Part shown: in pieces, positions 19,091-55,251 of the stretch
Numbering within the stretch: position 1 is the stretch's first letter
How the letters are laid out: every line of letters starts with the position of its first letter
Assembly (NCBI GenBank): GCA_943358395.1
Contig: CALRGY010000002.1
Location: 1 to 58,166 of the forward strand
Source of the DNA: Candidatus Uhrbacteria bacterium
Lineage (GTDB): Bacteria; Patescibacteriota; Patescibacteriia; UBA9934
Direction of reading: 5' to 3'
Length of the DNA: 58,166 nucleotides
Made by a program: the position numbers and the translations under genes
Notes under the pieces: generated by a model
What the model was told of the DNA's origin: nothing
The model's database searches: none
The model's input: only the letters and a program-made list of their open reading frames with translations

Positions 19091-19133
19091 CAGACCCTGA
19101 GGCTTCGCCGAAGGGCCTCCGTCAGGATTCTGT
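19091..19133 (+). repeat. 43-nt hairpin repeat unit (GIY-YIG-associated), copy 1
   Basis: CAGACCCTGAGGCTTCGCCGAAGGGCCTCCGTCAGGATTCTG. Its reverse complement recurs at 19683-19725 and partly at 19174-19202. Confidence 0.8.
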
Positions 19134-19667: not shown

Positions 19668-19682
19668 CTTCTGCTTCATCAA

Positions 19683-19725
19683 CAGAATCCTGGCGGAGGC
19701 CCTTCGGCAGAGCCTCAGGGTCTGT
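19683..19725 (-). repeat. 43-nt hairpin repeat unit, inverted copy
   Basis: CAGAATCCTGGCGGAGGCCCTTCGGCAGAGCCTCAGGGTCTG. Confidence 0.8.
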
Positions 19726-21042: not shown

Positions 21043-21771
21043 TCAAAGGTTGTTTTTTGGAGGAAGCGCGGCACTGTGGGTGAGTGCAAGGTACGCATTT
21101 CGTGGATGATCGGTGCCCCAAATGGCGCTTCCCGCAATAAGAGCGTTTGCCCCTGCATTGATGATATTTTGCATGTTTTCTTGAGTTACTCCGCCATCGA
21201 CTGCGATGGCGAGCGAAGGATGAATGGCGCGAATGCGGCGAATCTTTGCAAGAATCGGCTCACCAAGGAATGCGTGACCAGAATGTCCCGGTTGCACACC
21301 CATTACCAGAATACGATCGGGCAGTTGTGAAAGGACATCGATGACATCGGGTGCGGTTTCTGGGCAGAGGGCAACGCCGGTTTCTAGATCACACGCACGA
21401 ATTGCATCAAGGATCGGCGATAATGGCCTAGAAATCTCCGCATGAACAATCGCCCGAATCGTTTCCGGCACAAGTGCTTTCCACTGTTCGATGATTGGAA
21501 GAGGATTCTGAATCATGCAGTGGAGCTCGATGAATGGAACGTGATCTCTCCCCCATTTATGGGGGAGTAAGGAGGGGGCTGAAGCCGAGAGGGGGCTCTC
21601 GTGAAGAGCGGTCACTGCCGCCGCATCACAAAAACACCTTGCCCCAAACATACTTCCATCAAGAATATCGACGTGCGCTGTCATCCCCGGTTCCCAAAGC
21701 CCAGGGAACATAAGCTTCTCACGAAGCTCTTCTGCGTTTTCCGCAAGGATCGAGGGGAGAATTTCCAGCAT
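21043..21771 (-). CDS. rpe: Ribulose-phosphate 3-epimerase, carrying an in-frame repeat insertion
   Basis: ILPSILA, HVDILDG, LHCMIQNP, VMGVQPGHSGHAF, AVDGG and AGSAIWG motifs. Confidence 0.88.
   Translation of the reverse strand: MLEILPSILAENAEELREKLMFPGLWEPGMTAHVDILDGSMFGARCFCDAAAVTALHESPLSASAPSLLPHKWGRDHVPFIELHCMIQNPLPIIEQWKALVPETIRAIVHAEISRPLSPILDAIRACDLETGVALCPETAPDVIDVLSQLPDRILVMGVQPGHSGHAFLGEPILAKIRRIRAIHPSLAIAVDGGVTQENMQNIINAGANALIAGSAIWGTDHPRNAYLALTHSAALPPKNNL
21546..21598 (+). repeat. G-rich palindromic element (working label GPE) inside rpe, antisense to the gene
   Basis: CTCTCCCCCATTTATGGGGGAGTAAGGAGGGGGCTGAAGCCGAGAGGGGGCTC, translated on the minus strand as ESPLSASAPSLLPHKWGRD. 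Confidence 0.8.
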
Positions 21772-22257: not shown

Positions 22258-22328
22258 GAAGGAAGTATAGCCCAAGAGTGTTTGGAGTGGGCTTCGGATA
22301 TGAGACAATGATTATATTTTCCCCGAAT

Positions 22329-22895
22329 ATGATTAAAGCGATACTGAGCGATTACGATGGGGTACTCATTCCGGATGAGTATCGGGGCATTCGGACATTG
22401 TGTCCGGATGTAACGTTGCTTGAAAGAATCGAATCTGCGTACTACGCAACCGCGACGTGTACTGGTTTGTGGGAAGAGCTTCGCAACGCATTTGCGCTGA
22501 AGGAGAGTGACGATGAGCTTCGGATGCTTTACAACACAGAAGACGACGAGCAACGGCAATTCGAAGCACGGGTTCTTGATCGGTATCGTGAGATTCAGGG
22601 TGATTGCTTACTGCTCCTTCTTTCAAATCAAATTACCGATCGCGCGAATTATCTTCGCGCGCGTAATCATCTTGGATGTTTCGATACTCTGTATTTCTCT
22701 AATGAACTTGGTTTACAAAAACCTAACCCGGCAATTTTTGCCCTTGTTCTGGCACGCCACAACCTCTCTCCAGAAGAGGTCATCTTTATTGATGACGCAC
22801 AAGAGAATATCGATGCCGCGTCAGCCCTAGGTATGCAGACCATCCACTTTACCGGGATTGAGTCCCTTGATCGCATCCGATCATTGCTTTCCTAA
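22329..22895 (+). CDS. HAD-superfamily hydrolase
   Basis: Motif I SDYDGVL, motif III/IV K.NP..F...IFIDD. Start at MIKAIL (earlier in-frame GTG/ATG starts are possible). Confidence 0.75.
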   Translation: MIKAILSDYDGVLIPDEYRGIRTLCPDVTLLERIESAYYATATCTGLWEELRNAFALKESDDELRMLYNTEDDEQRQFEARVLDRYREIQGDCLLLLLSNQITDRANYLRARNHLGCFDTLYFSNELGLQKPNPAIFALVLARHNLSPEEVIFIDDAQENIDAASALGMQTIHFTGIESLDRIRSLLS

Positions 22896-22956: not shown

Positions 22957-23079
22957 AGGACTTTCTCATTTTCGACCAATTTCGGTGCGCAAGGAAGAAT
23001 ATTCGCGAGGTGTACTTCTCGGTACATTGAGCGAATGTTCGACGCAGCAAGCCGAAAATGGGCAAAATGAGGAAGTTCT
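22957..23079. repeat. LHE copy 3, directly upstream of ileS
   Basis: AGGACTTTCTCATTTT...AAAATGAGGAAGTTCT ends. Body CGGTGCGCAAGGAAG...GTGTAC-TTCTCG-GTACAT. Confidence 0.85.
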
Positions 23080-23105
23080 CACAATTTATCGAGCTCGGCG
23101 TTCCG

Positions 23106-26057
23106 ATGCTCCACTTGCCTGATATGCAATCACATTCTGAACAGGAAAAAGCGGTTTTGGATTCTTGGGAGAAGAATAAAATTTTTGAACGATCGGTTGA
23201 GGAACGATCGAAAGAGAAGCGATATACGTTTTACGATGGGCCGCCGTTTGCCACGGGTTTGCCGCATTATGGGAGCATTTTGCCGTCGGTGATTAAAGAT
23301 GTTGTTCCACGATATTGGACGATGAAGGGCTATAGGGTGGAGCGGGTGTGGGGTTGGGATTGTCATGGAGTGCCGATTGAAAACATGATCGAGCAGGAAT
23401 TGGGATTAAAAGGCGGGAAGAAGGGTATTGAAGAGCTGGGAATTGATAAGTTTAATGCGGCGTGCCGTGCGGCGATTTTGCGGTTCGATAAGGAATGGGA
23501 GGTGATTATCAAACGTGTTGGCCGTTGGGTCGACTTCAAGCATTCGTATAAAACCATGGACAACACGTTCATGGAAAGTGTGTGGTGGGGATTTAAGCAG
23601 CTGCACGAAAAGAATCTTGTCCGTGAAGGCAAACGAGTTATTTTGTACTGTCCGCGCTGCGCAACTCCACTCAGCAACTTCGAAATCGCGATGGACAACT
23701 CGTACAAGGACGTTGAAGACAATTCGTTGTACGTGAAATTTAAGCGAAAAGATGCAGAGAATGAATATTTCTTGGCGTGGACGACGACGCCATGGACGCT
23801 CCCCGGCAACGTCGGCTTAGCTGTCGACCGCGATGCGGAATACGTGAAAGTGCAGACCGGCGATGAGTTCGTCTGGATGGCGAAGCAGTGTATGGAGAGA
23901 ACCCTCCCCCTTTTCAAGGGGGAGTCGGAGGGGGTCTCGAATGGCGTCGTGATTGAATCCCTCCCTGGATCCTCTCTCCTCAACATCGAATACGAGCCCC
24001 TCTATTCCTACATGCCCACCGAGGGCAAAAAGGCGCATTACATTCTGCCGGCAACGTTCGTTTCCCTCGACGATGGATCCGGAATTGTTCATACGGCTGC
24101 CGTGTTCGGTGAAGACGACTATAAGCTTGCGCAAGAGTTCGATCTTCCATGTGTTCCCACTCTCGATGACCAAGGTCGGTTCCTTGATATCGTTGAGCCA
24201 CTCAAGGGTGTGTTCTACAAAAAAGGTGAGCAGTGGGTGATCGACGATCTGACGAGCAGGAATTTGGTGTGGTCGTCGACGAAGTTTATGCACTCGTATC
24301 CGATGTGCTATCGATGCTCGACTCCGTTGTATTACAACGCGGTGCCAGCATGGTTCATCGATGTGCAGTCGTTGAAACCGGAGTTGATTGCGCAGAACGA
24401 AAACATTAATTGGTACCCAGAGCACCTCAAGAAAGGGAGATTCGGCAAAGGTCTTGAAACCGCACCAGATTGGAACATTTCTCGCTCTCGGTACTGGGGA
24501 ACGCCAATGCCAGTATGGGTGGCAGAAGATGGCACACGCCGTGTTCTCGGTTCATTCGATGAGTTGAAGACATGGGCGGTTGATCCTTCGTGTGTTGAAA
24601 CGCTCACCGATTATCATCGTGAGTTTATTGACCCCATCGAGGTATGGGTTGACGATGCAAAAACGAAGAAGGGCAAGCGCATTCCAGAAGTGTTTGATTG
24701 CTGGGTGGAGTCTGGCTCTATGCCATTCGCCGCAATCCACGCGCCGTTTGAGAATAAGGAACAGTTCGATCACGCATTCCCAGCGCAATTCATCACGGAG
24801 TACATTGCGCAGACCAGAGCATGGTTTTATGTCATGCATGTCATGTCGGTAGCGCTCTTCGGCAAGAATTCGTATGAAAACGTGTTGACGACGGGAACGA
24901 TTCTCGCTGCGGACGGATCGAAGATGAGTAAGTCAAAGAAGAATTATCCTGATCCCACGATTCTTATCGAAAAGCACAGCGCGGATGCTCTTCGATTCTA
25001 TTTGATGTCTCAGCCGTTGGTGAATGGAGAAAATCTGTTGTTCAACGAATCCGGGGTCGAGGAGGTCTCCAAAAAGTTCATCACCATCATGAAGAACGTG
25101 GTGTCGTTCTACGGTTTGTACAAGGAGCACGATGATGGTCGTGAACCATCGAACATGCACGTGCTCGACCAATGGATCACGGCACGGATCGATGAGACGC
25201 TTGAGGCGGAGACCGCCGCCATCGAACGCTACGACCTTTCCGATGCCGCCCGATCCCTCCAATCCTTCGTCACCGATCTTTCCACATGGTACGTTCGCCG
25301 TTCGCGTGATCGCGTGAAGAATAGTGGCGACGATCGCGCTGAAGCGCTTGCGACTCTCCGATCGACCCTCACCACCTTCTCAAAGATGCTCGCGCCATTC
25401 ATGCCGTTCCTAGCAGAAATGATGTACCGCGATGTTGCCGGTGCCTCCGAATCCGATTCGGTTCACCTTCAGTCGTGGCCTCAGACGAGTACGCGACCTC
25501 TCCCCCTTTATAAGGGGGAGTCGGAGGGGGTGGGGAGTAAGGGGGAGGTCGTGACAGCGATGGGCGAAGCCCGCGCCATCGTTTCCCGCGTGATGGAGGC
25601 TCGCGACAATGCTGGCCGTTCCGTGAAACAAGCGCTTGGATCGATGAAAATTACGACGCCGACCGGAGCTATCGAACCAGGAATTCTCGAAGTGATTCTT
25701 GATGAGGTTAATGTAAAGACTGCAACAGTGGTGAAGGGTGCTGAGCTTGCGGTCGATGTCGATACTACACTTACCCCAGCATTGATCCGCGAAGGCATGG
25801 CACGTGAGGTAACTCGTCGGGTGAATGGGATGCGTAAAGAGGCGGGGATGACCATTGCGGATCGCATTGTCCTCCGCGTGTTCTCGGTAAGCGACGAGGT
25901 CAAGATGATGTTTGAGGAGTACAAAGATTCTCTTCAAGCCGACACCCTCTCGTCATCGGTCGCATGGGACCAATGCGACCCATCAGATTCTTCCGCAATC
26001 ACTCAATCCTTCCGCGTTGCAGAACAGGACATCACGATTGGATTTATACGAGCATAG
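23106..26057 (+). CDS. ileS: Isoleucyl-tRNA synthetase (type 2-like), with two in-frame repeat insertions
   Basis: PPFATGLPHYGS (HIGH region), WDCHG.P.E and KMSKSKKN. Start moved to ATG 23106 because the track start 23058 lies inside LHE copy 3. Confidence 0.92.
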   Translation: MLHLPDMQSHSEQEKAVLDSWEKNKIFERSVEERSKEKRYTFYDGPPFATGLPHYGSILPSVIKDVVPRYWTMKGYRVERVWGWDCHGVPIENMIEQELGLKGGKKGIEELGIDKFNAACRAAILRFDKEWEVIIKRVGRWVDFKHSYKTMDNTFMESVWWGFKQLHEKNLVREGKRVILYCPRCATPLSNFEIAMDNSYKDVEDNSLYVKFKRKDAENEYFLAWTTTPWTLPGNVGLAVDRDAEYVKVQTGDEFVWMAKQCMERTLPLFKGESEGVSNGVVIESLPGSSLLNIEYEPLYSYMPTEGKKAHYILPATFVSLDDGSGIVHTAAVFGEDDYKLAQEFDLPCVPTLDDQGRFLDIVEPLKGVFYKKGEQWVIDDLTSRNLVWSSTKFMHSYPMCYRCSTPLYYNAVPAWFIDVQSLKPELIAQNENINWYPEHLKKGRFGKGLETAPDWNISRSRYWGTPMPVWVAEDGTRRVLGSFDELKTWAVDPSCVETLTDYHREFIDPIEVWVDDAKTKKGKRIPEVFDCWVESGSMPFAAIHAPFENKEQFDHAFPAQFITEYIAQTRAWFYVMHVMSVALFGKNSYENVLTTGTILAADGSKMSKSKKNYPDPTILIEKHSADALRFYLMSQPLVNGENLLFNESGVEEVSKKFITIMKNVVSFYGLYKEHDDGREPSNMHVLDQWITARIDETLEAETAAIERYDLSDAARSLQSFVTDLSTWYVRRSRDRVKNSGDDRAEALATLRSTLTTFSKMLAPFMPFLAEMMYRDVAGASESDSVHLQSWPQTSTRPLPLYKGESEGVGSKGEVVTAMGEARAIVSRVMEARDNAGRSVKQALGSMKITTPTGAIEPGILEVILDEVNVKTATVVKGAELAVDVDTTLTPALIREGMAREVTRRVNGMRKEAGMTIADRIVLRVFSVSDEVKMMFEEYKDSLQADTLSSSVAWDQCDPSDSSAITQSFRVAEQDITIGFIRA
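23894..23925 (+). repeat. GPE copy inside ileS (first)
   Basis: CTCCCCCTTTTCAAGGGGGAGTCGGAGGGGGT, translated LPLFKGESEGV. Confidence 0.8.
25498..25547 (+). repeat. GPE copy inside ileS (second)
   Basis: CTCTCCCCCTTTATAAGGGGGAGTCGGAGGGGGTGGGGAGTAAGGGGGAG, translated PLPLYKGESEGVGSKGE. Confidence 0.8.
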
Positions 26058-26060
26058 AAT

Positions 26061-26133
26061 GGCTAATATTAGCCAAATACTATTGACAAAACCGTGATTT
26101 TGTGGCATAGTAACGCCATGGACAGTCGTATCT
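26061..26133 (+). promoter_or_regulatory. Conserved regulatory cassette copy 1: 14-nt palindrome + sigma70-like promoter + conserved transcript start
   Basis: GGCTAATATTAGCC (26061-26074), TTGACA (26083-26088), 17-nt spacer, TGgCATAGT (-10 at 26106-26111), then ACGCCATGGACAGTCGTATCT. Near-identical block at 28729-28801. Confidence 0.6.
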
Positions 26134-28292: not shown

Positions 28293-28301
28293 ATAAAGGT
28301 T

Positions 28302-28453
28302 TAGGACTTTCTCATTTTAGGATAGTTTCGATGAAGATCGAGGAAAATTCGTAAGACGTACTTCATGGTACGTTGAACGATTTTCCGATGATCTGACCCC
28401 GCCGTTCGCGAACAGCGGGGTGAGTCGAAAATAGACAAAATGAGGAAGGACTA
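28302..28453. repeat. LHE copy 4 (variant II with nested GC hairpin), intercistronic
   Basis: TAGGACTTTCTCATTTT...AAAATGAGGAAGGACTA. Body CGATGAAGATCGAGGAAAATTCG-TAAG-ACGTAC-TTCATG-GTACGT. Nested CCCCGCCGTTCGCGAACAGCGGGG. Confidence 0.85.
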
Positions 28454-28456
28454 AGA

Positions 28457-28675
28457 TTATTTTCCAACGTCGGTTCCTCCGCCCGTTGTACTGCGTGAAT
28501 TAAAAATGCTGCGTAGCCCTCGGCGTGACGACGAAGATGTGCACGGAACGGTGGTGACCGTTCCATCTTCTGCGGTGGTGGTACAAGGTTGCCGATCGCT
28601 CCACATCCATGACCCTATGATGGCTGCGCCACCAAGACCAAGCACAGCAAGAAGAGTTTTCACATTGAATGGCAT
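28457..28675 (-). CDS. Small membrane protein (hypothetical)
   Basis: 72 aa from MPFNVKTLLAVLGLGGAAIIGSWMW with one TM helix. First gene of the DUF350-speE string. Confidence 0.45.
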   Translation of the reverse strand: MPFNVKTLLAVLGLGGAAIIGSWMWSDRQPCTTTAEDGTVTTVPCTSSSSRRGLRSIFNSRSTTGGGTDVGK

Positions 28676-28728
28676 ATGCAGGAAAAGTATACCGTACAAT
28701 TTTCCTTCATGTTGAATAGTATTTATTT

Positions 28729-28803
28729 GGCTAATATTAGCCGAATACTATTGACAAAAGTCCATTTTTATGGCATAGTAACGCCATGGACAGTCGTATC
28801 TAG
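28729..28803 (+). promoter_or_regulatory. Conserved regulatory cassette copy 2 (palindrome, -35/-10, mini-ORF MDSRI*)
   Basis: GGCTAATATTAGCC (28729-28742), TTGACA (28751-28756), 17-nt spacer, CATAGT (28774-28779), ATG 28786, TAG 28801-28803. Confidence 0.6.
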
Positions 28804-28804: not shown

Positions 28805-28941
28805 CGGGCTTTCGCCTTTCGCCTTTGGTCTCTTTTCGAATCAGCTCATCGGAAACGTCTTCAACGTACCAAGAAGTACGTCTCAGACGATTTCCTCGAT
28901 CTTCATCGAAAATAGCCTCAAATGCGGAACCCCTATCACGC
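28805..28941. repeat. LHE copy 5 (degenerate ends), inserted in the leader of cassette copy 2
   Basis: GGTCTCTTTTCGAATCAGCTCATCGGAAACGTCTTCA-ACGTAC-CAAGAA-GTACGT-CTCAGACGATTTCCTCGATCTTCATCGAAAATAGCC. Confidence 0.75.
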
Positions 28942-28959
28942 ATACACATCGAGATCACC

Positions 28960-30568: not shown

Positions 30569-31126
30569 ATGATCGCCTCTCTTGATGGCATTGTTTCCGG
30601 CATCGAATCCGATGGAATCCTTTTGGAAGTGAATGGTATTGGGTACCGGGTGTACATGGGCCGGGTGCAGACGGAAGTTGGCGACAGATTGCGGTGCTGG
30701 ATTAGCGAAATTATTCGGGAGGATAAGCACGACCTATACGGATTCGCGCATCGAACTGATCAGGCGTTGTTTGAACAGTTGATGAGCGTTTCTGGTGTTG
30801 GCCCGAAACTTGCGTTAAAGATTCTTTCCGTTGGCACCACGGAAGACGTTGTACGACATATCCAAATGGACGACGTGGCATTTCTCACGTCGATCAGCGG
30901 CGTGGGGAAGAAAACCGCACAGAAGATTATTTTGGATTTGAAGGGTGTGCTTGTTTTGGAGAATACGAATAATGCTTCGAATACGACCTATTCAGAAGTT
31001 TCAGACGCATTAGAAAGTCTTGGCTATTCAAAAGCGGATATTGCCGACATCGCGAAGGACATTCTTGGAGAAACCACAGAATCCCGCGTGAAATCTGCAC
31101 TGAAACTGTTATCGCGTCACGTATGA
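30569..31126 (+). CDS. ruvA: Holliday junction branch migration protein RuvA
   Basis: MIASLDG.V.......LLEVNGIGYRV, L.SVSGVGPK.AL.IL and ISGVGKKTAQKI helix-hairpin-helix motifs. Confidence 0.88.
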   Translation: MIASLDGIVSGIESDGILLEVNGIGYRVYMGRVQTEVGDRLRCWISEIIREDKHDLYGFAHRTDQALFEQLMSVSGVGPKLALKILSVGTTEDVVRHIQMDDVAFLTSISGVGKKTAQKIILDLKGVLVLENTNNASNTTYSEVSDALESLGYSKADIADIAKDILGETTESRVKSALKLLSRHV

Positions 31127-32154
31127 GCGTCGAATATACCCAAGAACAGTGGAATGCCCTTGTCGCACCATTCGCGCCCATCAGTGGTGCATTTTTGCAG
31201 AGCTTTGCCTGGGGAGAGTTTCAGCAATCGCAGGGAAGGGAAGTGAAGAGAATAGTCGTGAACGTGAACCCTCTTTTATTTATGGGGGAGTTAGGAGGGG
31301 GCGGGGGACCGAGGGGGGCTGAGCCGCAGGGGACTCGTACCGCGATCGCTCAAGCGGTGAAGTTGAAGGCACCTCTCCGCATGACGTACTGGCTGGTGCC
31401 GAAGGGCCCAATTGGCGACGCGTCATCGACGGCGATGCGAGATAGCGTGGTCGCTGCACTCGGAGCTAGCACCGATTATATCCGCACCGAATCCGCAGAA
31501 CGCCTGCCACGATCGATCGCCACGAAAGACATGCACCCCCACACCACACGTCTTATCGACCTTACGCAGGGATACGATGCAGTTTTTGGTGATTTTCATA
31601 CTCGCGTGCGATACAACACGAGGCTTGCAAAGAAGAAGGGCGTGATCTGCGAATTCGTTAGCCTCGACCGTTTTGAGGAATTCGTTGAACTCATGAAGCA
31701 AACCGCCGAGCGAGACGAGTTTTCGATTCACGAGATCGCGTATTACCGATCGATGATCGAAAGGCTCGGCGCCGAGCCATCGTGCCACGCAAAGCTGGCC
31801 ATTGCATCGAAGGATGGCACGCCCCTTGCTGCCACGCTCACCATCGACGCATTCGGTACAAGAACGTATCTGCACGGCGCATCCGGAAATATGATGCGCG
31901 AGCTGAAAGCAACCCACGTTCTGCAAGACTTCGTCATCCACGATGCCATCACTTCCGGCATGATCCGTTACGATTTCTGGGGCATCGCCCCCGAAGGATC
32001 CTCATCAAAACATCCCTGGGCCGGCATCACCGAATTCAAAAAAGCCTTCGGAGGATACGTCTATGCCACCGCCGGAACATTCGATATTCCAGTGAATATT
32101 CCAAAGTACATCATCTATCGTGTAGCAAAAGCGGTGAGGGGAGTGGTGAGGTGA
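31123..32154 (+). CDS. FemAB-family peptidyltransferase (lipid II amino-acid transferase, FemX/MurM-like) with in-frame repeat insertion
   Basis: FLQS..WGEFQ, R.N.R.A.K.G and YLHGAS...R...A.H.LQ...I patterns. Confidence 0.8.
   Translation: MSVEYTQEQWNALVAPFAPISGAFLQSFAWGEFQQSQGREVKRIVVNVNPLLFMGELGGGGGPRGAEPQGTRTAIAQAVKLKAPLRMTYWLVPKGPIGDASSTAMRDSVVAALGASTDYIRTESAERLPRSIATKDMHPHTTRLIDLTQGYDAVFGDFHTRVRYNTRLAKKKGVICEFVSLDRFEEFVELMKQTAERDEFSIHEIAYYRSMIERLGAEPSCHAKLAIASKDGTPLAATLTIDAFGTRTYLHGASGNMMRELKATHVLQDFVIHDAITSGMIRYDFWGIAPEGSSSKHPWAGITEFKKAFGGYVYATAGTFDIPVNIPKYIIYRVAKAVRGVVR
31270..31331 (+). repeat. GPE copy inside the femX-like gene
   Basis: CTCTTTTATTTATGGGGGAGTTAGGAGGGGGCGGGGGACCGAGGGGGGCTGAGCCGCAGGGG, translated PLLFMGELGGGGGPRGAEPQG. 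Confidence 0.75.
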
Positions 32155-32156: not shown

Positions 32157-32280
32157 AGGGGTTTTCGAATTTTAGGCTATTTTCGGTGCGCAAGGAGCAA
32201 AGTTCGTGAGACGTACTTAACGGTACGTTGAACGAATTTGTGACGAAGTAAGCCGAAAAGAGACAAAATGGGAAAACCCT
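32157..32280. repeat. LHE copy 6 between convergent genes
   Basis: AGGGGTTTTCGAATTTT...AAAATGGGAAAACCCT ends. The body is nearly identical to copies at 39384 and 55094. Confidence 0.85.
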
Positions 32281-32287
32281 AAATGAG

Positions 32288-33553
32288 TTACGGCAGCAAA
32301 CTAAACTTTTCCTGATGAATCCTGTGATGCGGCACTTTGAGAGCTAAAAGTTGAGTACGGATGGCGGCAACCATGCCTTGGGGGCCGCAGAGGAAGATGT
32401 CGGTGTTTTTGGGATCGAGGTGGCGTAAGGCGGCTTCGGCGGTGAGGAAGCCTTGCTCTTTGCTTTTCCACAACACCACGTTGAGATTCGGTTTTTGTGC
32501 ACGCATGCGGGCAATATCGTCGGCAACGGCGTTCTCTGTTTCGTCGGAAATAGCATAGAACAGAGTGGCGGAGTATTCGCTGGGGAGGGATTCCGCGAAG
32601 GCAAGAAACGGGGTGATGCCAATACCGCCAGCAATCCAGCACTGCGTTTTTCCGCCGGCGTTGTACGTAAAGCTTCCGTACGGCCCTTCCACCATTGCTT
32701 CGTCACCGATAACAATATTTTGGAGGGTATTCGTGAAGTCGCCGAGTTTTTTCGCCACAAAACGAATAGAGCCGTCGGCACTAGACCCGGCGATGGTGAA
32801 TGGATGCTCTTCAGCCTTCACGCCGTTGCTCATGTACGTGACGTAGGCAAACTGCCCCGGGCGAAGATCGAAGCCCTGGTTTTTTGGCGTTAATGTTACG
32901 TCAACGAATTTTTCGTTTACCACGCGAACGTTGGTAACGACATACGGTGTTCGATGCACAAAAAGCTTATGAAACAGCACACGGTACACAATAGCGAGCA
33001 CACCAAGTCCCAGGAAGAGCACAAAAAGGATGCGGAGCGCGGGGACGGATTGAATGCCGCCAGAAATGAAAATGCCATGGAGTGCGCCAAGAAGGAACGC
33101 GAGGGCAAGGTATCGGTGCACTTTTTTCCAAATATGGTACGGCAGGCGAATGTAATATGTGCACACAATGCAGAACGCCATGAGAATCAGCCCTAGAACG
33201 CCAAGGGTTTTAATGATGTCACCCACGGGAAGTAAGAATAGCGCAGCATCTTTGGGGGAAAATTGCGCAATCGGCCACACAAGAAAGAGGGGATGGAGGA
33301 GAAGCGCGATGAGTGCGCCGGTGCCGATGAGCTGATGCGCCCGATACGACTGCCCAAGGCTGCCGAAGATTTTTTCTTGCACCGGCAAGCGAACGGCGAG
33401 GAGTAGCGCGAGGGTAAAAGCGGCAAAGCCAATCACGCCTAATGTGCTACCAATGAAGTTCATCGAAAGCGTTGGCGACGTTGCACTGAGCCAGAGGGCT
33501 AAGGGAAGGGTGAGAAAGAGCGTGACGGGAATGGTGCCGGTGGGGATGCGCAT
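32288..33553 (-). CDS. Ferric-reductase-like transmembrane protein with FAD/NAD(P)-binding (FNR-like) domain
   Basis: Six TM helices with conserved His residues, then HPFTIAGS and GGIGITPF motifs. Confidence 0.75.
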   Translation of the reverse strand: MRIPTGTIPVTLFLTLPLALWLSATSPTLSMNFIGSTLGVIGFAAFTLALLLAVRLPVQEKIFGSLGQSYRAHQLIGTGALIALLLHPLFLVWPIAQFSPKDAALFLLPVGDIIKTLGVLGLILMAFCIVCTYYIRLPYHIWKKVHRYLALAFLLGALHGIFISGGIQSVPALRILFVLFLGLGVLAIVYRVLFHKLFVHRTPYVVTNVRVVNEKFVDVTLTPKNQGFDLRPGQFAYVTYMSNGVKAEEHPFTIAGSSADGSIRFVAKKLGDFTNTLQNIVIGDEAMVEGPYGSFTYNAGGKTQCWIAGGIGITPFLAFAESLPSEYSATLFYAISDETENAVADDIARMRAQKPNLNVVLWKSKEQGFLTAEAALRHLDPKNTDIFLCGPQGMVAAIRTQLLALKVPHHRIHQEKFSLLP

Positions 33554-34783: not shown

Positions 34784-37323
34784 AACACATTCAGCACATC
34801 ACTCCCATGTATGACGACGCTGTACCAGAGCGTTTTTTGAGTGCAGCAGCACAGAGCGATGAAAAAAAGCTCCTCATTCACCATGGTACCGGGAACCCGT
34901 CGCCGTATATCGTGAAGCTTTCTCGAGGCACCGATGCACCATCGACCGCGGGGACGGCAGATGCAATCCAGGCGCTTGCTGCAAGCCTCATTATCGATGG
35001 TGACGATGATAGTGGCACCATCGAAATGGAACATGAAGACCTTGGTATAGATTTTGCAGATATTTCCAGTCAGTTGCGTGAAAGAGACGTTGCGTATGGT
35101 GTGCGGATGATTCCTCAAGAAAAATCATCGGCATCCATTGAATTTCCACGACGTCCCGTTTCCCTTGATGACGCATTGGCGGCGTATGTCGATCCAGCGA
35201 TTTCGTTGGAGGCATTCGTTCCGATCACATCGGTCATGGAAGAGGTGCCTCTGGAACAGATTGCACAAGAGCAGCGCACGCCCAACACCGTTGCTCCCGA
35301 TTCTTCGTTGCGGCGCGTGATGCGTTTTGAATGGGGCTTTTTCCATCATTTGCCAACGCGCGCCTTGGGCGCATTCGTCCTTTTATCGTTTATCGTGGTG
35401 CTTCCCCTTCATGCCATGCAGGTGTTTTCTGGAACCGCTCATCAGGTGAATGCGGTGAAAGATGTTGGGTTTGCAGCATTGGATGATGTTTCACGGGCGA
35501 CAGATGCGCTTGCCGCAAAAGATTTTTCTGCCGCAGGAGATGATTTTTCTGCTGCAGCGGAAAAGTTTGCATTTGCGCAGGAATCGTTGGGCGGTTTACA
35601 TGCTGGCGTGGTGGCACTGGTGAATAGCATTCCGCAAACGGACAGAACCTATGAATCCGTGCGTGGATTAGTCACTGCAGGCCAAGAGCTTTCGCAAACA
35701 GCGTCTATCATGAGTGAAGCAATGCAGGGGATTCCGTCGCAGTCGTCTACAGATGTTGTGACAAAGTTGAATTTGCTCGGTGCGTATATTGAAAATGCAT
35801 TGCCGCATGCCTTGGCAGCAGAAGCGGCGCTGGCAAAGGTGCGTACAAGCGTGGTGCCGGCAGAGTACACTGCAACTATCGCGCGACTGCAGGCAGATGC
35901 GCCGATGGTTGCAGCATCCATGCAGGAATTTGTACGGTTTATTCATACCCTTACGTTTGTACTGGGGGGCAATAGCACCATGCGGTACTTGGCGCTGTTT
36001 CAAAACAATACGGAGCTGCGCCCCACGGGTGGATTTGTGGGGAGCTTCGCAGAGATCAGTATGAATAACGGCGCGATTGCTGCAATGCGCCTGCCAGGTG
36101 GCGGCACGTACGATACACAGGGGCAGCTAGATACTTTTGTTGCTGCACCAAGGCCGTTGCAGCTTATTAACCCCCGATGGGAGTTCCAGGACGGAAATTG
36201 GTTCCCAGATTTTCCTACGTCGGCAAAAAAGATGCAGTGGTTTTATGAGCATGCTGGTGGCCCCACCACAGACGGCGTTGTGGCAGTGAACGCCACGTTT
36301 GTCGAAAAGCTTCTTGAGGTGATTGGCCCTATTGAAATGCCAGAATATGGCGTAACCCTCAATGCGGAGAATTTTGTATTTACCACAGAAAAAGCTGTAG
36401 AAATTGATGCCGACAAAACCAAGAACACGCCAAAGGCATTTTTAGGAGACCTTGTGCCGCGGGTGATTGAAAAAATAAAGGGAGCAGATGCACCAACATT
36501 CATGAAGATTCTGCTCTTGATTGAGCGAGGGCTTGCAGAAAAAGACATTCAGCTTTCGTTCCGTGACAATGACGCGCAAAAATTGATTGCAGATTTGGGT
36601 TTTGACGGTGCCGTGCGCCAAACCGATGGAGATTACCTCATGGTCGTGAATACCAACGTTGGCGGAGGAAAGACAGATGCAGTGATTGATCAGCAGGTAG
36701 ACGTTGTAGTAGACATTGCGGAAACGGGGACTATCGATCACGCGTTGACGCTCACGAAAACGCATCGCGGCATGGCAAATGCGGTGTTTACTGGAAAAAA
36801 TAACGTTGATTATGTGCGGTTTTATGTTCCAGAGGGCAGTGTATTACTTTCTGCGGATGGTTTTGAACCACCGCCAGAATCGCTCTTTGAATCATCGAGC
36901 GTCCCCTTGGGTGTTGATGACGATTTGTCTGTCGTGATGTCTGAAGAATCGCGCGATGCGCTTTTGGGAATAGATACGTGGAACGAATTTGGAAAAACAG
37001 TGTTTGGTGGGTGGATGCAAACAGCTCCAGGGGAAACGCAGGTGGTGCAATTGTCGTATCGCATTCCGCAGGTGCTTTTTCGTGACGAGGGCAGTACATC
37101 GGTGTTTGCACGTGCGCGCAATGCACTGGGGCTTGGTACGCACGATGGATATTCCCTTTTTGTGCAAAAACAATCTGGCGTGGTGTCGCGCGACACCACG
37201 GTACGTGTATCCGTTCCAAGCACGATGCATACCGCATGGACGAATGTTACAGGCGCAGACACGAATATAGTGACGTTTCAGAATACTCATGATGTTTTTT
37301 CCGGATGGTTATTGAAAAAATAA
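34780..37323 (+). CDS. DUF4012-domain membrane protein
   Basis: MRYLALFQNNTELRPTGGFVGSFAEI is the signature DUF4012 block. GTGA overlap with the upstream stop. Confidence 0.7.
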   Translation: MKHIQHITPMYDDAVPERFLSAAAQSDEKKLLIHHGTGNPSPYIVKLSRGTDAPSTAGTADAIQALAASLIIDGDDDSGTIEMEHEDLGIDFADISSQLRERDVAYGVRMIPQEKSSASIEFPRRPVSLDDALAAYVDPAISLEAFVPITSVMEEVPLEQIAQEQRTPNTVAPDSSLRRVMRFEWGFFHHLPTRALGAFVLLSFIVVLPLHAMQVFSGTAHQVNAVKDVGFAALDDVSRATDALAAKDFSAAGDDFSAAAEKFAFAQESLGGLHAGVVALVNSIPQTDRTYESVRGLVTAGQELSQTASIMSEAMQGIPSQSSTDVVTKLNLLGAYIENALPHALAAEAALAKVRTSVVPAEYTATIARLQADAPMVAASMQEFVRFIHTLTFVLGGNSTMRYLALFQNNTELRPTGGFVGSFAEISMNNGAIAAMRLPGGGTYDTQGQLDTFVAAPRPLQLINPRWEFQDGNWFPDFPTSAKKMQWFYEHAGGPTTDGVVAVNATFVEKLLEVIGPIEMPEYGVTLNAENFVFTTEKAVEIDADKTKNTPKAFLGDLVPRVIEKIKGADAPTFMKILLLIERGLAEKDIQLSFRDNDAQKLIADLGFDGAVRQTDGDYLMVVNTNVGGGKTDAVIDQQVDVVVDIAETGTIDHALTLTKTHRGMANAVFTGKNNVDYVRFYVPEGSVLLSADGFEPPPESLFESSSVPLGVDDDLSVVMSEESRDALLGIDTWNEFGKTVFGGWMQTAPGETQVVQLSYRIPQVLFRDEGSTSVFARARNALGLGTHDGYSLFVQKQSGVVSRDTTVRVSVPSTMHTAWTNVTGADTNIVTFQNTHDVFSGWLLKK

Positions 37324-37326
37324 ATG

Positions 37327-37505
37327 TAGGACTTCCTCATTTTGTCTATTTTCGACTCACCCCGCTGTTCGCGAACGGCGGGGTCAGATCATCGGAAAAT
37401 CGTTCACCCCGCTTCTCGCGAGAGGCGGGGTCAACGTACCATGAAGTACGTCTCACGAATTTTCCTCGATCTTCATCGAAACTAGCCTAAAATGAGAAAG
37501 TCCTA
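37327..37505. repeat. LHE copy 7 (variant II, two nested GC hairpins), fills the whole intergenic gap
   Basis: TAGGACTTCCTCATTTT...AAAATGAGAAAGTCCTA. Nested CCCCGCTGTTCGCGAACGGCGGGG (37360-37383) and CCCCGCTTCTCGCGAGAGGCGGGG (37407-37430). Confidence 0.88.
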
Positions 37506-37511
37506 AAACAT

Positions 37512-39329
37512 ATGCTTACTAAACGTCGGCACCACGAAAAGCATCCAAAACACGCGGCAGCAGAAATTGCGCAAAGCCTCTCTGCTATTTACGGCAGCGA
37601 GCGTGGCGATTTAAAGGTGCTCACCAAGGGCGAATCGTGGGCAACGTGGTTTCTGAAACGCGTGATTGCGACGTTGCTGGTGGTGTGTGTGCTGGTGTTT
37701 GGTGGGTTTGCGGTGTATTGGAAATTCTTTGCCACGAGCCACGAGGGGAAACCACTAACGATGACGTTTATCGCACCGGATGTGCTGCAAAGCGGTGCAT
37801 TAGCAACAATTGAGGTGCAGTACGCAAACGCCACGGCGTATCCACTGACGGGTGTAGAAATTGATGTGAATCTTCCTTCCGGCTTTGCGTTACGTGCATC
37901 GGAGCCTTCTGCAACGAATGTGAAAGATTTGGTGTTCGATGTTGGCACGATTTCAGGGAATACGGACGGAAAGATTGTCATCAACGGCGTGTGGAATACA
38001 GACGTTCCTAGCACAGCAGGCATTCAGGCATTGGCGCGGTATCAGCCTGCAAATTTTAATGCGGAGTTCCACGATATCGTCACGAAAACCATTACCACGA
38101 CGGAAAGCACCACCGCACTCACGATTGATGCCCCGCTGACGGCAAATGTTGGGGAAGCGGTGACGTATACCGTTCATGTGAAAAACACGGGAACAGAAAT
38201 TCTCCCTGCGCCGCGTGTGGCATTAACATTGCCTGCAGGGTTTTTTGTACAGACGAGTACTCCGGCGTTTGCTCCGGGTGAAGGATTTGCGCTCACGCTT
38301 CCCGACATTGCTCCGAGTACTGAATCGATCATCACCGTGACGGGGGCGTTCGCCTCTGATGTAATGGGAGAGCAAATCATCATGGGAGCAAGCGGCATTG
38401 CAGGTGAGCGATTTTCTGTACAAGCAACAGCCACGATGCAAACAGACGTGAAAGGGAGTGCGCTTGCACTCACCATGGTGGGTAACGGTACGCAAGGCAC
38501 GGTGATCGCAGATCCAGGATCGCTGCTTCGCTTGGCGCTCCGCATAGAGAATATGAGCGATACGGCGGTGAGTGACGCGACGGCGCTTTTAGATTTTACC
38601 GCGGAAGATAATATTCCAATTGACTGGAAGACGGCAGTGCTTGGTGGGGGAAGAATTACGGCAAAGGGCATTGTATTCGACGCAAAGGCACTGGGAGTTC
38701 TTGCGCCCGGAACACACAAAACGCTCGACCTTGCTTTTCCGCTGAAAACCGATCTTTCTGCGGTGAGTAGCGCATTTTCCATCGCCTTCAGCGCAACACG
38801 CGGTGCTATTACTGTGCAATCGGCTCCGCTTTCCGTGGTGCTCAATTCAGATGCCGCTGTAATAAGTGCACTTCGGTATTATGACGACGACGGCGCACCG
38901 CTTGGGAGTGGTCCATTGCCGCCAACCGTTGGAACAGCAACGCATTATCGTGGGGTGTGGGGTATTGCCAGTGGTGCGCATGGCTTGGAAGACGTTACGG
39001 TTTCTGCAACGCTCCCTAGTGGTGTGGCATGGGACGATTTTGCCACAGTTACCAGCGGCACACTTGCCTTCGATCCTGTTCAACGTATTGTACGCTGGAG
39101 TATTGCAAGCATTCCTGCCGGTTCTCCAATGATCACTGCCCGATTCAGCGTTGCGCTTACCCCAACATCTGCAGACGTTGGTTTGATAAAAACCGTCGTC
39201 GGCAAAACCGTTCTCACCGCAAAAGACAGCACCACGAGCGCCACCATTGAACGCTCCACCGAAGCCATTACCACCGAGTGTATCGGCGACCTGTATGCGG
39301 AAGGGAAGGGGGAAGTGAGGAAAGAGTAA
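37512..39329 (+). CDS. Membrane-anchored repeat-domain surface protein (DUF11/CARDB-like)
   Basis: N-terminal TM helix. Repeated beta-rich segments (V.Y.V.V.N.G...L) are suggestive of DUF11-type domains. Confidence 0.55.
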   Translation: MLTKRRHHEKHPKHAAAEIAQSLSAIYGSERGDLKVLTKGESWATWFLKRVIATLLVVCVLVFGGFAVYWKFFATSHEGKPLTMTFIAPDVLQSGALATIEVQYANATAYPLTGVEIDVNLPSGFALRASEPSATNVKDLVFDVGTISGNTDGKIVINGVWNTDVPSTAGIQALARYQPANFNAEFHDIVTKTITTTESTTALTIDAPLTANVGEAVTYTVHVKNTGTEILPAPRVALTLPAGFFVQTSTPAFAPGEGFALTLPDIAPSTESIITVTGAFASDVMGEQIIMGASGIAGERFSVQATATMQTDVKGSALALTMVGNGTQGTVIADPGSLLRLALRIENMSDTAVSDATALLDFTAEDNIPIDWKTAVLGGGRITAKGIVFDAKALGVLAPGTHKTLDLAFPLKTDLSAVSSAFSIAFSATRGAITVQSAPLSVVLNSDAAVISALRYYDDDGAPLGSGPLPPTVGTATHYRGVWGIASGAHGLEDVTVSATLPSGVAWDDFATVTSGTLAFDPVQRIVRWSIASIPAGSPMITARFSVALTPTSADVGLIKTVVGKTVLTAKDSTTSATIERSTEAITTECIGDLYAEGKGEVRKE

Positions 39330-39383: not shown

Positions 39384-39544
39384 TAGGACTTTCTCATTTT
39401 AGGCTATTTTCGGTGCGCAAGGAGCAAAGTTCGTGAGATGTACTTAACGGTACGTTGAACGAATTTGCGACGCAGCAAGGTATGAAGTAAGCGCTTCGCT
39501 TTACTTCATACCAAGCCGAAAAGAGACAAAATGAGAAAGTCCTA
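39384..39544. repeat. LHE copy 8 (variant I with a nested 15-bp hairpin)
   Basis: Perfect 16-nt ends AGGACTTTCTCATTTT / AAAATGAGAAAGTCCT. Nested GGTATGAAGTAAGCG-CTT-CGCTTTACTTCATACC. Confidence 0.88.
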
Positions 39545-40699
39545 TTAATATTTCTGTGTGGCGTGGTGCAGCGCATCGAGGATAACTGCTCCCGTTTTCT
39601 TCCATGAAAAGTGCTGCGCGCGTTCGGTGCCTCGTTTTCGAAGGAGGGCACGGAGCGGGGTGCCGTGGGGTTCCTCGATGATTTGGTGGAGAGCATTGGC
39701 GATATCGGTGATGTTGAGGGGGTCGATGAGGAGTGCGGCGTTGCCGGTGACATCGGGTAGTGATGATGAAATGCTGGTGATGACGGGCGTGCCGCATGCC
39801 ATCGCTTCAAGAACCGGAAGCCCGAAGCCTTCGTAGAACGACGGGAAGAGAAGCGTTGTTGCGCCGCGAAGCAATGCGGCTTTATGTTTTTCGGGGACAT
39901 AGGAAAGCTCGCGGATGTCTGCGGAATATGGGGACGTACGAATGGCGGCATCGAGTGCTCGCGTTTTCCATCCTGTGGTGCCGGCAAGAACCAGGGGGAG
40001 CGTTTCGGTGCTGCGGGATCGGAATTGGGTATAGGCGAGCACCACGCTTTCTAAGTTTTTGCGTGGTTCTCGTGTAGCAAGCGCAAGAAGATAGGGGTGA
40101 TTCAAATCGTACGCGGCGCGATATGAGCGGTCTTGTGACTGTTCTCGGGCAGCATAGACGGCGTGGTCAACGCCAAGAGGTGCAACGGTAATACGTTCTT
40201 CAGGGATTCCGTAAAAGTGTGAAGCATCGTTTTTACTGTGTTCGGAAACAGCAATCACGCGTTTTGCCTGCAGAAATACCTTTTCTTCATTCGTCGCTTT
40301 TGCACGCAGATGATCTTTCCACGTGAAGCATTCTGGTGCCGCGCGAAGTGCGGCATCGTGAAAGAGAACAACGTATGGCAGTGCGGTTTTGCATACATGA
40401 GCATGGGGAAAGAGCCATGCGTCTGGCAGGGTAGGGAGAAAGCGTTCCATGGTTGGCCCATGGGGAAGCGTCCAGAGTGCGCTGGCAAGTTTGTTGGGAA
40501 GGGAAAGGGGAACAACCGTAATATTCAGCTCTCGAAACACGGGAATGTTCATGAGTGTTTCTTGTGTGCCGGTAGAAAAAAGAACGAAGTGATCGTTGGG
40601 TGATTGATGCGCCATTGCGCGAATAACGGATTCCGTTACAACCCCAACTCCGGTTTTATGTGCAGCCGTGAGCGAACGAATATCAATAGCGATATTCAT
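39545..40699 (-). CDS. Glycosyltransferase family 4
   Basis: YEGFGLPVLEAMACGTPVI.S..SSLP.V motif. Confidence 0.8.
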   Translation of the reverse strand: MNIAIDIRSLTAAHKTGVGVVTESVIRAMAHQSPNDHFVLFSTGTQETLMNIPVFRELNITVVPLSLPNKLASALWTLPHGPTMERFLPTLPDAWLFPHAHVCKTALPYVVLFHDAALRAAPECFTWKDHLRAKATNEEKVFLQAKRVIAVSEHSKNDASHFYGIPEERITVAPLGVDHAVYAAREQSQDRSYRAAYDLNHPYLLALATREPRKNLESVVLAYTQFRSRSTETLPLVLAGTTGWKTRALDAAIRTSPYSADIRELSYVPEKHKAALLRGATTLLFPSFYEGFGLPVLEAMACGTPVITSISSSLPDVTGNAALLIDPLNITDIANALHQIIEEPHGTPLRALLRKRGTERAQHFSWKKTGAVILDALHHATQKY

Positions 40700-43238: not shown

Positions 43239-43297
43239 TAGGACTTCTCATTTGAGGCGAGTTTCGATGAAGATCATAGACCAAAGGAGAAGTCCTA
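43239..43297. repeat. LHE copy 9 (59-nt internally deleted derivative)
   Basis: TAGGACTTCTCATTTGAGGCGAGTTTCGATGAAGATC|ATAGACCAAAGGAGAAGTCCTA. Confidence 0.7.
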
Positions 43298-46656: not shown

Positions 46657-46901
46657 GATCTTTGCCTTGTCCGGGGCGGAACATGAGCACGGAATGTGCT
46701 CAAAAAGAAACGCCAGGGCTTTCCTGAGCGTTTGCCACGAACCGGGTATTACAGCAGAGAGAGAGTTTATTCAAGCCCTTCCTAAGAAAATAGGCAGAAA
46801 TGCTGGGTATTTTAGAAAAATGGCGCTATGCTGACGAAATTTGGGCAGGAAGTGTTTTGGGGCTATAGGGGGGATGAGTCCACTCCGAACGCTTTGCGGG
46901 T

Positions 46902-46955
46902 CAGCTCCCTCCTTACTCCCCGCCCCCTCCTTACTCCCCCATAAATGGGGGAGAG
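46902..46955 (-). repeat. GPE copy, intergenic, inverted orientation
   Basis: The reverse complement reads CTCTCCCCCATTTATGGGGGAGTAAGGAGGGGGCGGGGAGTAAGGAGGGAGCTG. Confidence 0.8.
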
Positions 46956-46983
46956 AAGCGAGGAGATGAATCTCGATTGTGAA

Positions 46984-47045
46984 CTCCCCTCCATTTATGG
47001 AGGGGCTGGGGGAGGCGGGGGATTAGAGGGGGGGGCTGAAGCCGA
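46984..47045 (+). repeat. GPE copy, intergenic, forward orientation
   Basis: CTCCCCTCCATTTATGGAGGGGCTGGGGGAGGCGGGGGATTAGAGGGGGGGGCTGAAGCCG. Confidence 0.8.
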
Positions 47046-49786: not shown

Positions 49787-49901
49787 TAGGATTTTCTCAC
49801 TTCCCGCATTGTATCATCGAAAATTGTTCAACGTACCAGGTAGTACGTCTCACGAAATTTGCTCGATGCGCACCGAAACTGGTCGAAAATGAGAACGTCC
49901 T
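49787..49901. repeat. LHE copy 10 (hybrid body) in a divergent promoter region
   Basis: TAGGATTTTCTCAC...AAAATGAGAACGTCCT. Core ACGTACC-AGGTA-GTACGT. Confidence 0.8.
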
Positions 49902-49940
49902 CAAGATCACGACAAGGGGCGTGATATAATTCTTCACAAT

Positions 49941-54321: not shown

Positions 54322-54397
54322 GGACCCATAGCTCAACGGTTAGAGCACCGAGCTTATACCTCGGCGGTTCCTGGTTCGAGTCCAGGTGGGTCTACCA
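54322..54397 (+). tRNA. tRNA-Ile (anticodon UAU)
   Basis: Hand-folded 76-nt cloverleaf: acceptor GGACCCA/TGGGTCT (G1-U72), D stem GCTC/GAGC, anticodon stem CCGAG/CTCGG with loop CTTATAC, T arm CCTGG-TTCGAGT-CCAGG, encoded CCA. Confidence 0.8.
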
Positions 54398-55089: not shown

Positions 55090-55093
55090 CTTT

Positions 55094-55217: not shown

Positions 55218-55251
55218 ATCCGTAAAATGATACGGTTCCAAAGAGACCATG

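Follow-up and report, generated by a model that had tools for sequence, protein, structure and literature searches.

Positions 1 to 58,166 of contig CALRGY010000002.1 from Candidatus Uhrbacteria bacterium (GCA_943358395.1), hereafter the window, include a gene for a FemX/FmhB-like peptidoglycan peptidyltransferase that encodes a Gly-rich segment of 21 residues (PLLFMGELGGGGGPRGAEPQG, residues 50-70 of the 343-amino acid (aa) FemX open reading frame (ORF); DNA 31270-31332). With a probability of about 0.8, this segment is a structurally decayed, long-form copy of a dispersed class II intrastrand triplex-motif repeat, carried as a passenger in a tolerant loop. The copy, called copy D here, belongs to a multi-copy family and is absent from most orthologues of the gene. 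The assignment to triplex-motif repeats is based on architecture and covariation, and a triplex is a putative fold of this sequence. Judged by its architecture, the element is a known but little-studied kind of repeat. Copy D appears to be a passenger with no role in the enzyme.

The core of the repeat is ~33 nucleotides (nt) long. On one strand it shows the order CTCCCCC, a loop of 6-7 nt, GGGGGAG, a second loop of 3-4 nt (TAAG or TCG) and GAGGGGG; the intact core reads CTCTCCCCCATTTATGGGGGAGTAAGGAGGGGGC. The long form reaches ~70 nt. Arms 1 and 2 are complementary, and intact copies fold as single-stranded DNA (ssDNA) into hairpins of 8-9 bp with -8.6 to -9.3 kcal/mol. Arm 3 is the mirror image of arm 2 in all six copies of the window. 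The first-pass annotation of this DNA had recognized the G-rich half of the element and described a longer copy of it in FemX, which is supported here; it had missed the complementary C-arm upstream and the mirror relation between the two G-arms. The 62-nt string that it gave for the FemX copy has a single exact match, at 31271-31332, so that the placement at 31270-31331 has to move right by one base.

The scan for mirrored G-arms revealed six copies in 58 kb: one in rpe, two in ileS, one in FemX and two in intergenic DNA, so that 4/6 are genic and 2/6 intergenic (Table 1). The core GGGGGAGTTAGGAGGGGG is matched four times in the window with three or fewer mismatches and never in 100 shuffles; the perfect three-arm motif is found five times and in none of 200 shuffles. 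The five are copies A, B, C, E and F, whose triple arms of 7 nt are without mismatch, and in copy F all three arms are altered together relative to the other copies. Two subtypes are distinguished by the second loop, which is either 4 nt (TAAG) or 3 nt (TCG). Ahead of the window copies stands GTGA(A/T)C or CGCGACC. Within genes, the frame in which the element is read varies (PLFKGESEGV, FMGGVGGG, or antisense PSNSP...). An Rfam scan of the whole window at gathering thresholds returned rRNA and tRNA matches only, none of them at repeat copies. A full-text literature search for the core sequence and its complement gave no match, and nothing relevant was found in the literature on repeat elements in Patescibacteria proteins.

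The same architecture is found far beyond the window. The pattern CCCCC-N6-GGGGGAGT-N1-2-GGAGGGG was scanned for with one genome per species, and at least 116 stretches contain it (individual stretches of DNA outside the window are referred to by L numbers). With uniform base composition, roughly two matches would be expected by chance. The taxa among the matches listed are Uhrbacteria and other Patescibacteria, Bacteroidales, Gallionellaceae/Sideroxydans, Rhodocyclales, Anaerolineae/Chloroflexota, Planctomycetota and Armatimonadota. In these matches, CTCT ahead of the C-run and T past the last G-run are conserved though the pattern does not fix them.

The 810 kb of sequence surrounding the listed matches contain at least 112 more motifs with three perfect arms. 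They show 22 arm combinations, among them arms like those of the BoxC elements discussed below; BoxC-like copies are seen in L121, L034 and L050. Among copies outside the search seeds, the place of a single A in arm 2 predicts that the A or T of arm 3 is at the mirrored position and not at the direct one. For GGGGAGG arms, 41 and 39 cases lie at or next to the mirror position and 4 at the direct position. That the layout of three arms is maintained, rather than G-richness or a hairpin alone, is mainly supported by this covariation between the three. A reading of the two G-arms as direct repeats was rejected, as the position of the A follows the mirror.

In the matches listed, long open frames hold the motif 20 times in the sense and 20 times in the antisense direction. 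The core is in frame in uvrB (L064), ftsK (L073), a PGA_cap protein gene (L049), a Mur ligase gene (L120), secA (L031), uvrA (L052), a histidine kinase gene (L008) and a TonB-dependent receptor gene (L085). The hosts of these in-frame cores are other Patescibacteria, one Anaerolineae genome and the further genome L085. Head-to-head doublets are also observed in L064 and L072. In the uvrB gene of L064, copies of two arm types form an inverted pair. Viral contigs, 2.9 million of them, gave only three matches to the repeat, and a phage vehicle is therefore unlikely.

The host gene of copy D encodes a FemAB-family protein (Pfam PF02388, E 1.6e-34). The names of its 165 homologues are lipid II:glycine glycyltransferase or FemA-FemB family protein, and these come from Patescibacteria, some of them Uhrbacteria. 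A profile built from 38 orthologues matches, among Protein Data Bank (PDB) sequences, Staphylococcus aureus FmhB (6snr, E 3e-29), FemA (1lrz) and Weissella FemX (1ne9). The host protein has the sequence profile and the GNAT-like fold of the FemAB family; against the NCBIfam equivalog of alanyltransferase FemX it scores 24 bits, far below the cut-off of 500. The earlier claim that the gene stays open despite the segment holds: the 343-aa ORF retains 62 of the 62 columns that are invariant across the 38 orthologues, and thus the FemX gene looks functional. By its sequence, the gene is intact, the insert aside.

In the alignment with the 38 orthologues, the window FemX is ~21 residues longer, consistent with an in-frame insertion. 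The closest relatives (74-79% identity) carry a short turn at this position, for example VVGEDGDRT. The spacing between the anchors WGEFQ and KGP is 43-44 residues in ~60 of ~70 orthologues from metagenome contigs, and it is greater almost solely where a copy of the repeat is present. The exceptions are the distant orthologues L162, L165 and L192, which are 2-11 residues longer without a repeat copy. The Gly-rich segment is not conserved in homologues that lack the element; its conservation there had been named in the first-pass annotation as the observation that would speak against a repeat origin. Structure mapping, which was proposed together with this alignment, places the segment in a low-confidence loop at the tip of a beta-hairpin. 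The AlphaFold model on the orthologue alignment has a mean predicted local distance difference test (pLDDT) of 93.4 and a predicted template modeling score (pTM) of 0.89; pLDDT is ~57 over residues 50-70, between the strands 40-48 and 72-82. In the profile search, the insert site falls on the GRDGE turn of S. aureus FmhB (6snr). According to the model, the segment is located at the surface of the FemX N-terminal lobe, in the turn of a beta-hairpin, without confident structure.

Copy D combines the 4-nt-loop subtype with the long form, and its continuation GGAGGGGGCGGGG...GCTGA.CCGCA is common to copy E. The FemX version of the core is CCCTCTTTTATTTATGGGGGAGTTAGGAGGGGGC. The C-arm reads CTCTTTT instead of the CTCCCCC of copies A and E, which are four C-to-T changes, while both G-arms are intact. 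As ssDNA, copy D folds at -2.6 kcal/mol, and 51 of 200 shuffles fold equally well. The decay of the C-arm thus means that the DNA hairpin is lost in this copy. Where copies A and E read GGGGGAGTAAGG, copy D reads GGGGGAGTTAGG. The TAAG loop in the FemX frame would give GAG TAA, whereas copy D has GAG TTA. By sequence comparison, the T at 31292 removes the sole stop of the 4-nt-loop subtype in this frame and keeps the gene open.

The first-pass annotation had noted one extra nucleotide in FemX relative to the ileS copies. The loop is indeed 3 nt (TCG) in ileS and 4 nt (TTAG) in FemX, which shifts the frame of the second G-arm. It is not a slip specific to FemX; a 4-nt loop (TAAG) marks a subtype to which the rpe copy and one intergenic copy belong as well. 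The match that had been noted between the 3' module GGGGGGCTGAGCCG (31313-31326) and the tails of the rpe and intergenic copies was confirmed, with GGGGGCTGAAGCCG at 21574 and 47031.

Table 1. Positions of the repeat copies, the parts of copy D, the FemX gene and a second repeat in the window.
Feature	Position	Strand	Remark
FemX/FmhB-like peptidoglycan peptidyltransferase gene, host of copy D	31123..32154	+	ORF, Pfam, homologues, AlphaFold
Copy A, intact, in rpe	21537..21605	+	gene 21043-21771, minus strand; antisense read ...SPLSASAPSLLPHKWGRDH...; ssDNA hairpin of -8.8 kcal/mol
Copy B, intact, in ileS	23897..23945	+	gene 23058-26057; read as TLPLFKGESEGV; perfect arms
Copy C, intact core and G-rich extension, in ileS	25491..25559	+	read as RPLPLYKGESEGVGSKGEVV; perfect arms
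Copy D, long form, partly decayed, in FemX	31258..31335	+	mostly absent from orthologues; low pLDDT
Copy D, 5' extension GTGAACGTGAAC	31258-31269	+	
Copy D, decayed C-arm CTCTTTT	31271-31277	+	
Copy D, first loop ATTTAT	31278-31283	+	
Copy D, G-arm GGGGGAG	31284-31290	+	
Copy D, second loop TTAG	31291-31294	+	
Copy D, T for the A of copies A and E in second loop	31292	+	TAA to TTA (Leu), codon 57; phase from start 31123
Copy D, mirrored G-arm GAGGGGG	31295-31301	+	
Copy D, extra G-runs	31302-31318	+	
Copy D, tail GCTGAGCCG	31318-31326	+	
Copy E, intergenic long form, G-arm pair duplicated	46895..46956	-	beside tRNA-Leu; tail common with copy D
Copy F, intergenic, head-to-head with E	46979..47044	+	adjoins tRNA-Leu; arms CCCCTCC / GGAGGGG / GGGGAGG
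Second repeat, MITE-like (MITE for miniature inverted-repeat transposable element)	337-468, 22957-23090, 28300-28463, 28812-28943, 32163-32291, 37317-37519		
Second repeat, continued	39384-39554, 43245-43275, 49820-49910, 55093-55226, 56683-56748		

The FemX turn is occupied in different ways among orthologues. It is empty in L003 and L125-L130. Forward copies of the CTCCCCC type are present in the window, L001, L122 and L124: the copy of L001 is intact and short (CTCTCCCCCTGCAAAGGGGGAGTCGGAGGGGGT), that of L122 is decayed, and that of L124 is interrupted by ~26 nt. L121 contains a forward BoxC-like copy, CCCTCTCC-TGCCAA-GGAGAGGG-CCG-GGGTGAGG, and L123 contains a copy in reverse orientation. 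In the short copies of L001, L121 and L122, a turn of 7-8 residues is swapped for 11 residues. The peptides encoded by the FemX-site copies of other genomes are unrelated (SPPAKGESEGV, LSCQGEGRGEV, RAPSNSPINGGES). When the insert is masked, genes with and without a copy are intermingled in the neighbor-joining tree, and the reverse copy (P0012, L123) is sister to a forward copy (P0013, L001). The arm type of L121, the orientation in L123 and the interleaved empty sites make a single ancestral insertion at the FemX site less simple. Two readings fit these sequences: such loops may have been struck more than once, or conversion from other copies may have refreshed an old copy that some lines have lost.

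The ileS gene offers a closer comparison. The ileS genes of L207 and the window are 90.4% identical in DNA and 95% in protein. Site B has a copy in both, with identical stems and a different loop; in the window, 12 extra nt (23934-23945) directly past the mirrored arm are absent in L207. At site C, the 69 nt of copy C stand against 33 unrelated A/T-rich nt in L207, between flanks ~95% identical. The 33 nt encode a peptide fitting the consensus of distant orthologues (…D.N-IL-..-MGE), and the element-free state of L207 looks ancestral. Site C is, by this comparison, a patch replacement without target-site duplication. The rpe copy likewise has ~65 nt in place of ~30 nt, which makes the product 12 aa longer, net, than its L001 and L003 orthologues. 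Not every copy is a pure insertion: the FemX segment is inserted in frame relative to the orthologues, whereas copy C of ileS and the FemX-site copies of the orthologues replace local sequence. Sites B and C of ileS hold copies in several orthologues in varying frames (PLFKGESEG, LPTFMGGVGGGL, PPFMGGSRG, SPSHGGVGGG). Beside these genes, L207 has a 593-aa PcfJ-like gene (726-2507) between rpiB and ileS, where the window has a 205-aa ORF (22278-22895) and a copy of the MITE-like repeat; the region next to the repeat-bearing genes has thus been rearranged between close relatives.

At empty sites, GG(G/A)GAG is found exactly at the arm-2 position in ileS site C of L003 (one of three occurrences in 2.9 kb) and in femX of L125 and L126 (one of two). 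It is not at this position in ileS of L001 or in femX of L003 and L127-L129. The G-rich microhomology of empty sites is suggestive only, and the repeat might be targeted by microhomology to turn-coding DNA rich in GG(G/A)GAG.

Most probably, the FemX copy is a passenger in decay, in a loop that tolerates it. It can be tolerated because homopurine/homopyrimidine arms cannot encode stops in any of the six frames, because the net length is a multiple of three, because it lies in a loop, and because the one stop of its subtype is absent (TTA for TAA). Stop-free arms would also account for the tolerance of triplex repeats in genes, while the 125-nt MITE-like repeat of the window stays intergenic. 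The presence of the motif in intergenic DNA, antisense in rpe and in both orientations elsewhere points to an element at the level of DNA rather than RNA or protein. From the junctions, the family would spread or be renewed at the DNA level by overwriting a short target patch, and this spread would not simply add sequence with a target-site duplication. A candidate process is template switching or ectopic gap repair after a stall at a folded strand; the same permissive loops would be hit, or kept, repeatedly in related genomes. The replacement pattern seems a better fit to template switching or ectopic gap repair than to cut-and-paste or copy-and-paste transposition. A broader proposal, which is tentative and on the doubtful side, is that triplex-motif repeats are a structure-driven mobile or gene-converting class without transposase, present in at least six phyla, which overwrites the same surface loops of essential proteins time and again and is a source of loop variation in the small proteomes of Patescibacteria.

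Several points weigh against the interpretation of copy D as a triplex-motif passenger. A single old insertion, later converted from other copies and lost in places, would equally account for the recurrence at the one FemX site. The polarity at this site depends on orthologues only ~75% identical, and the junction that documents patch replacement is that of copy C in ileS and not that of copy D. The neutral role of the 21 residues is what we infer. Copy D is without a Watson-Crick DNA stem and so probably does not do whatever the structure does. For TM_ECO, the E. coli repeat to which we compare the family below, the triplex has been demonstrated in vitro only, with single strands, and footprinting in vivo was negative (Holder et al. 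2015, PMC4666352).

Among the alternatives, a non-autonomous transposon has the best standing, though its probability is low. It would be a repetitive extragenic palindromic (REP) element, a REPIN or a MITE, whose hairpin is recognized by a RAYT or an IS200/IS605-like Y1 transposase encoded elsewhere. The short GC-rich hairpin, the REPIN-like head-to-head doublets (copies E and F, and likewise L064 and L072) and the many dispersed copies, patchy among close relatives, are consistent with it. The 'head' of a REP palindrome is GTAG or CGTC. A link of REPs with GTAG or CGTC is stated in the title of one study (PMC3733652). The window copies have neither tag at the head of the palindrome. They also have no terminal inverted repeats past the internal 8-bp stem and, in contrast to MITEs, do not combine terminal inverted repeats with a target-site duplication; at the one well-resolved junction, 33 nt are replaced and no duplication is present. 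No link of TM_ECO to transposons, phages or plasmids was found (PMC4666352), and the scarcity of the repeat in viral contigs points the same way. The covarying mirrored third arm is unexplained by a model with a hairpin only.

It is quite unlikely that the element acts in RNA or translation, either as an RNA G-quadruplex or through AGGAGG as an internal Shine-Dalgarno-like pause that tunes the synthesis or folding of FemX. From 31284, the sense-strand G-runs of copy D are G5-8-G5-1-G5-5-G6; these four runs of five or six fit a G-quadruplex if an 8-nt loop is allowed, but with loops of up to 7 nt copy D is not canonical. Copies C and F do fit the canonical definition, AGGAGG lies within the core, and the motif is located 6-30 nt upstream of a start codon in L017, L095 and L108. 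On the other hand, the balance of sense and antisense frames shows no strand bias, the rpe copy is antisense, and the closest FemX orthologues are without the segment. RNA folding of the whole insert is no better than that of shuffles (z = +0.42). In the case of TM_ECO, a quadruplex was ruled out by NMR, and neither a promoter nor a terminator effect was seen (PMC4666352).

Even less probable is a Gly-rich linker selected for the function of the FemX protein. The open frame, the missing stop and the surface position of the segment would suit a linker. The orthologues argue otherwise, as ~60 of ~70, including the closest, do not have it, and FemX-site copies in others encode unrelated peptides. 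The same DNA also turns up outside coding sequence and, with a different frame or orientation, in further genes, and the model confidence at the segment is low. An assembly artefact or chimera at the repeat can practically be dismissed: other contigs of the same runs match the 40-nt core only, making the repeat a potential joining point for the assembler, but a 3317-nt contig with 0 differences over 30900-31700, insert included, was assembled independently in two lake-water metagenome runs (depths 12 and 17), the reading frame is kept, and both flanks are from the same conserved gene.

Other repeats and features were observed. The MITE-like repeat of the window is unrelated to the triplex-motif family. 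It is ~125 nt long; inverted repeats of 16 nt (AGGACTTTCTCATTTT ... AAAATGAGGAAGTCCT) form its termini, and an ACGTAC...GTACGT palindrome lies inside. The window has no fewer than 10 copies, all intergenic; one is directly past the FemX stop codon and one is in the 23S-5S spacer. Only some of them contain nested hairpins: CTCACCCCGCTGTTCGCGAACGGCGGGGTCAG at 28393-28424, 37356-37387 and 37403-37434, and GGTATGAAGTAAGCGCTTCGCTTTACTTCATACC in the copy at 39380 (39460-39500). By their sequence, these are small hairpin insertions within a repeat. A 74-nt segment is duplicated with 89% identity at 26060-26133 and 28728-28801 (also 56752-56789). It contains a promoter-like TTGACA...TAGTAA followed by ATGGACAGTCGTATCT, and may be a shared promoter and leader before two genes. 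A 43-nt inverted repeat, 93% complementary (19091-19133 / 19682-19724), brackets 548 nt, which could be a small mobile or invertible segment. At 7995-8104, seven tandem units of the CTTCTT.GC.GC type show a 12-nt periodicity; on the minus strand they would encode a Lys/Ala-rich repeat. A tRNA-Ile gene with anticodon TAT is located at 54322-54397. This tRNA is uncommon in bacteria, where AUA is usually read by a lysidine-modified CAT anticodon.

In Gallionellaceae (L010, L030, L034, L050, L070, L083, L113 (Sideroxydans) and others), the core is inside a longer composite repeat, which consists of an inverted second triplex motif with arms of a different type (CCTCCCC/GGGGAGG/GGAGGGG), a spacer, the core and a conserved 40-nt tail (TTGGTTCTCATACTTCAAACTTCACTTGGCCGGATCAATA). 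In L011, L017, L095, L108 and others, the last G-arm (GGAGGGGG) stops 6-30 nt ahead of the start codon of a long ORF, and it could be used as a ribosome-binding site.

So far, triplex-motif repeats have been described as curiosities of intergenic DNA in E. coli and a few other bacteria, and apart from local genome instability no function is known for them. In the present case, a subfamily with this architecture is inside essential genes of a candidate-phyla-radiation bacterium, orthologous genes hold independent-looking copies at the same loop, and one close pair shows the element arriving by replacement of a gene patch. Filled and empty sites in conserved genes of many genomes provide a concrete system for asking how such repeats move. 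They suggest that the repeats shape protein loops in reduced genomes with little intergenic space. For annotation, the recurrent peptides 'PLxKGESEGV', 'SPxxGGVGGG' and 'PSNSP' in Patescibacteria proteins would be repeat-derived and not functional motifs.

Known repeats resemble the family to different degrees. The small dispersed repeats of cyanobacteria were reportedly described by Elhai and colleagues in 2008 from genes, other repeats and intergenic DNA, without transposase or target duplication. They offer a lead only: their sequence is different, and no triple-arm architecture is said to be known for them. REPs and REPINs are similar in being short, dispersed, GC-rich hairpins, often in inverted doublets. 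They are extragenic, whereas window copies are genic and have the covarying third arm that a hairpin does not need. Rickettsia palindromic elements (RPEs) are ~100-150 bp long and AT-rich. Like the window element, RPEs are selfish palindromic repeats, found in frame in unrelated housekeeping genes at places compatible with the fold (PMC10969869). They have a conserved peptide and are confined to Rickettsia; the core of the window element measures 33 nt, its reading differs in frame and orientation between sites, and its spread extends across phyla, and it is thus not an RPE-sized palindrome with one peptide.

The closest likeness is to a repeat of E. coli and other bacteria that was first named BoxC, later PIT elements (Hoyne and Maher 2000, 2002, as cited in Holder et al. 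2015, PMC4666352) and finally TM_ECO, whose consensus is CCCTCNCCC-N3-6-GGGNGAGGG-N3-GGGNGAGGG. Single strands of TM_ECO form a very stable triplex by circular dichroism (CD) and nuclear magnetic resonance (NMR). TM_ECO has two second-loop subtypes, and inverted pairs combine one of each. It was reported in 262 proteobacterial genomes, its loci are unusually variable between strains, and in E. coli MG1655 (K-12) the motif is 'always located intergenically' (PMC4666352). The window family shares with these elements the arm order, the loop sizes, the two second-loop subtypes, the inverted pairs of two types, the dispersed multi-copy state, the sharp differences between close relatives and the lack of a phage or transposon link. 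BoxC-like arms are present in the same genomes as the window type, and at the FemX site of L121. The class II order of pyrimidine arm, loop, complementary purine arm, loop and third purine arm is perfect in copies A, B, C, E and F, and the third arm is mirrored (antiparallel, with G*G-C and A/T*A-T triplets). Within the limits of ITxF (stem 6-15 nt, loops 1-6 nt), the stem is 8-9 bp with a 3-4 nt loop and the second loop is 3-4 nt.

The family is a different sequence subfamily of this architecture, as its copies do not follow the TM_ECO consensus. Its arms are 7-8 nt (CTCCCCC/GGGGGAG/GAGGGGG), whereas those of TM_ECO are 9 nt (CCCTCNCCC...), and its long form has extra G-runs and a GCTGAAGCCG tail, unlike TM_ECO. 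TM_ECO is proteobacterial; the window-type core is found in Patescibacteria and, near-identical, in Bacteroidota, Gallionellaceae, Rhodocyclales, Chloroflexota and others. The genic location of four of six copies differs from E. coli TM_ECO and from archaeal G-rich/C-rich repeats, all of which are intergenic. Relative to the reports found, the window family adds a sequence subfamily with a spread across phyla, a frequent in-frame presence in essential Patescibacteria genes, recurrence at the same loops of a protein and a junction of the replacement type.

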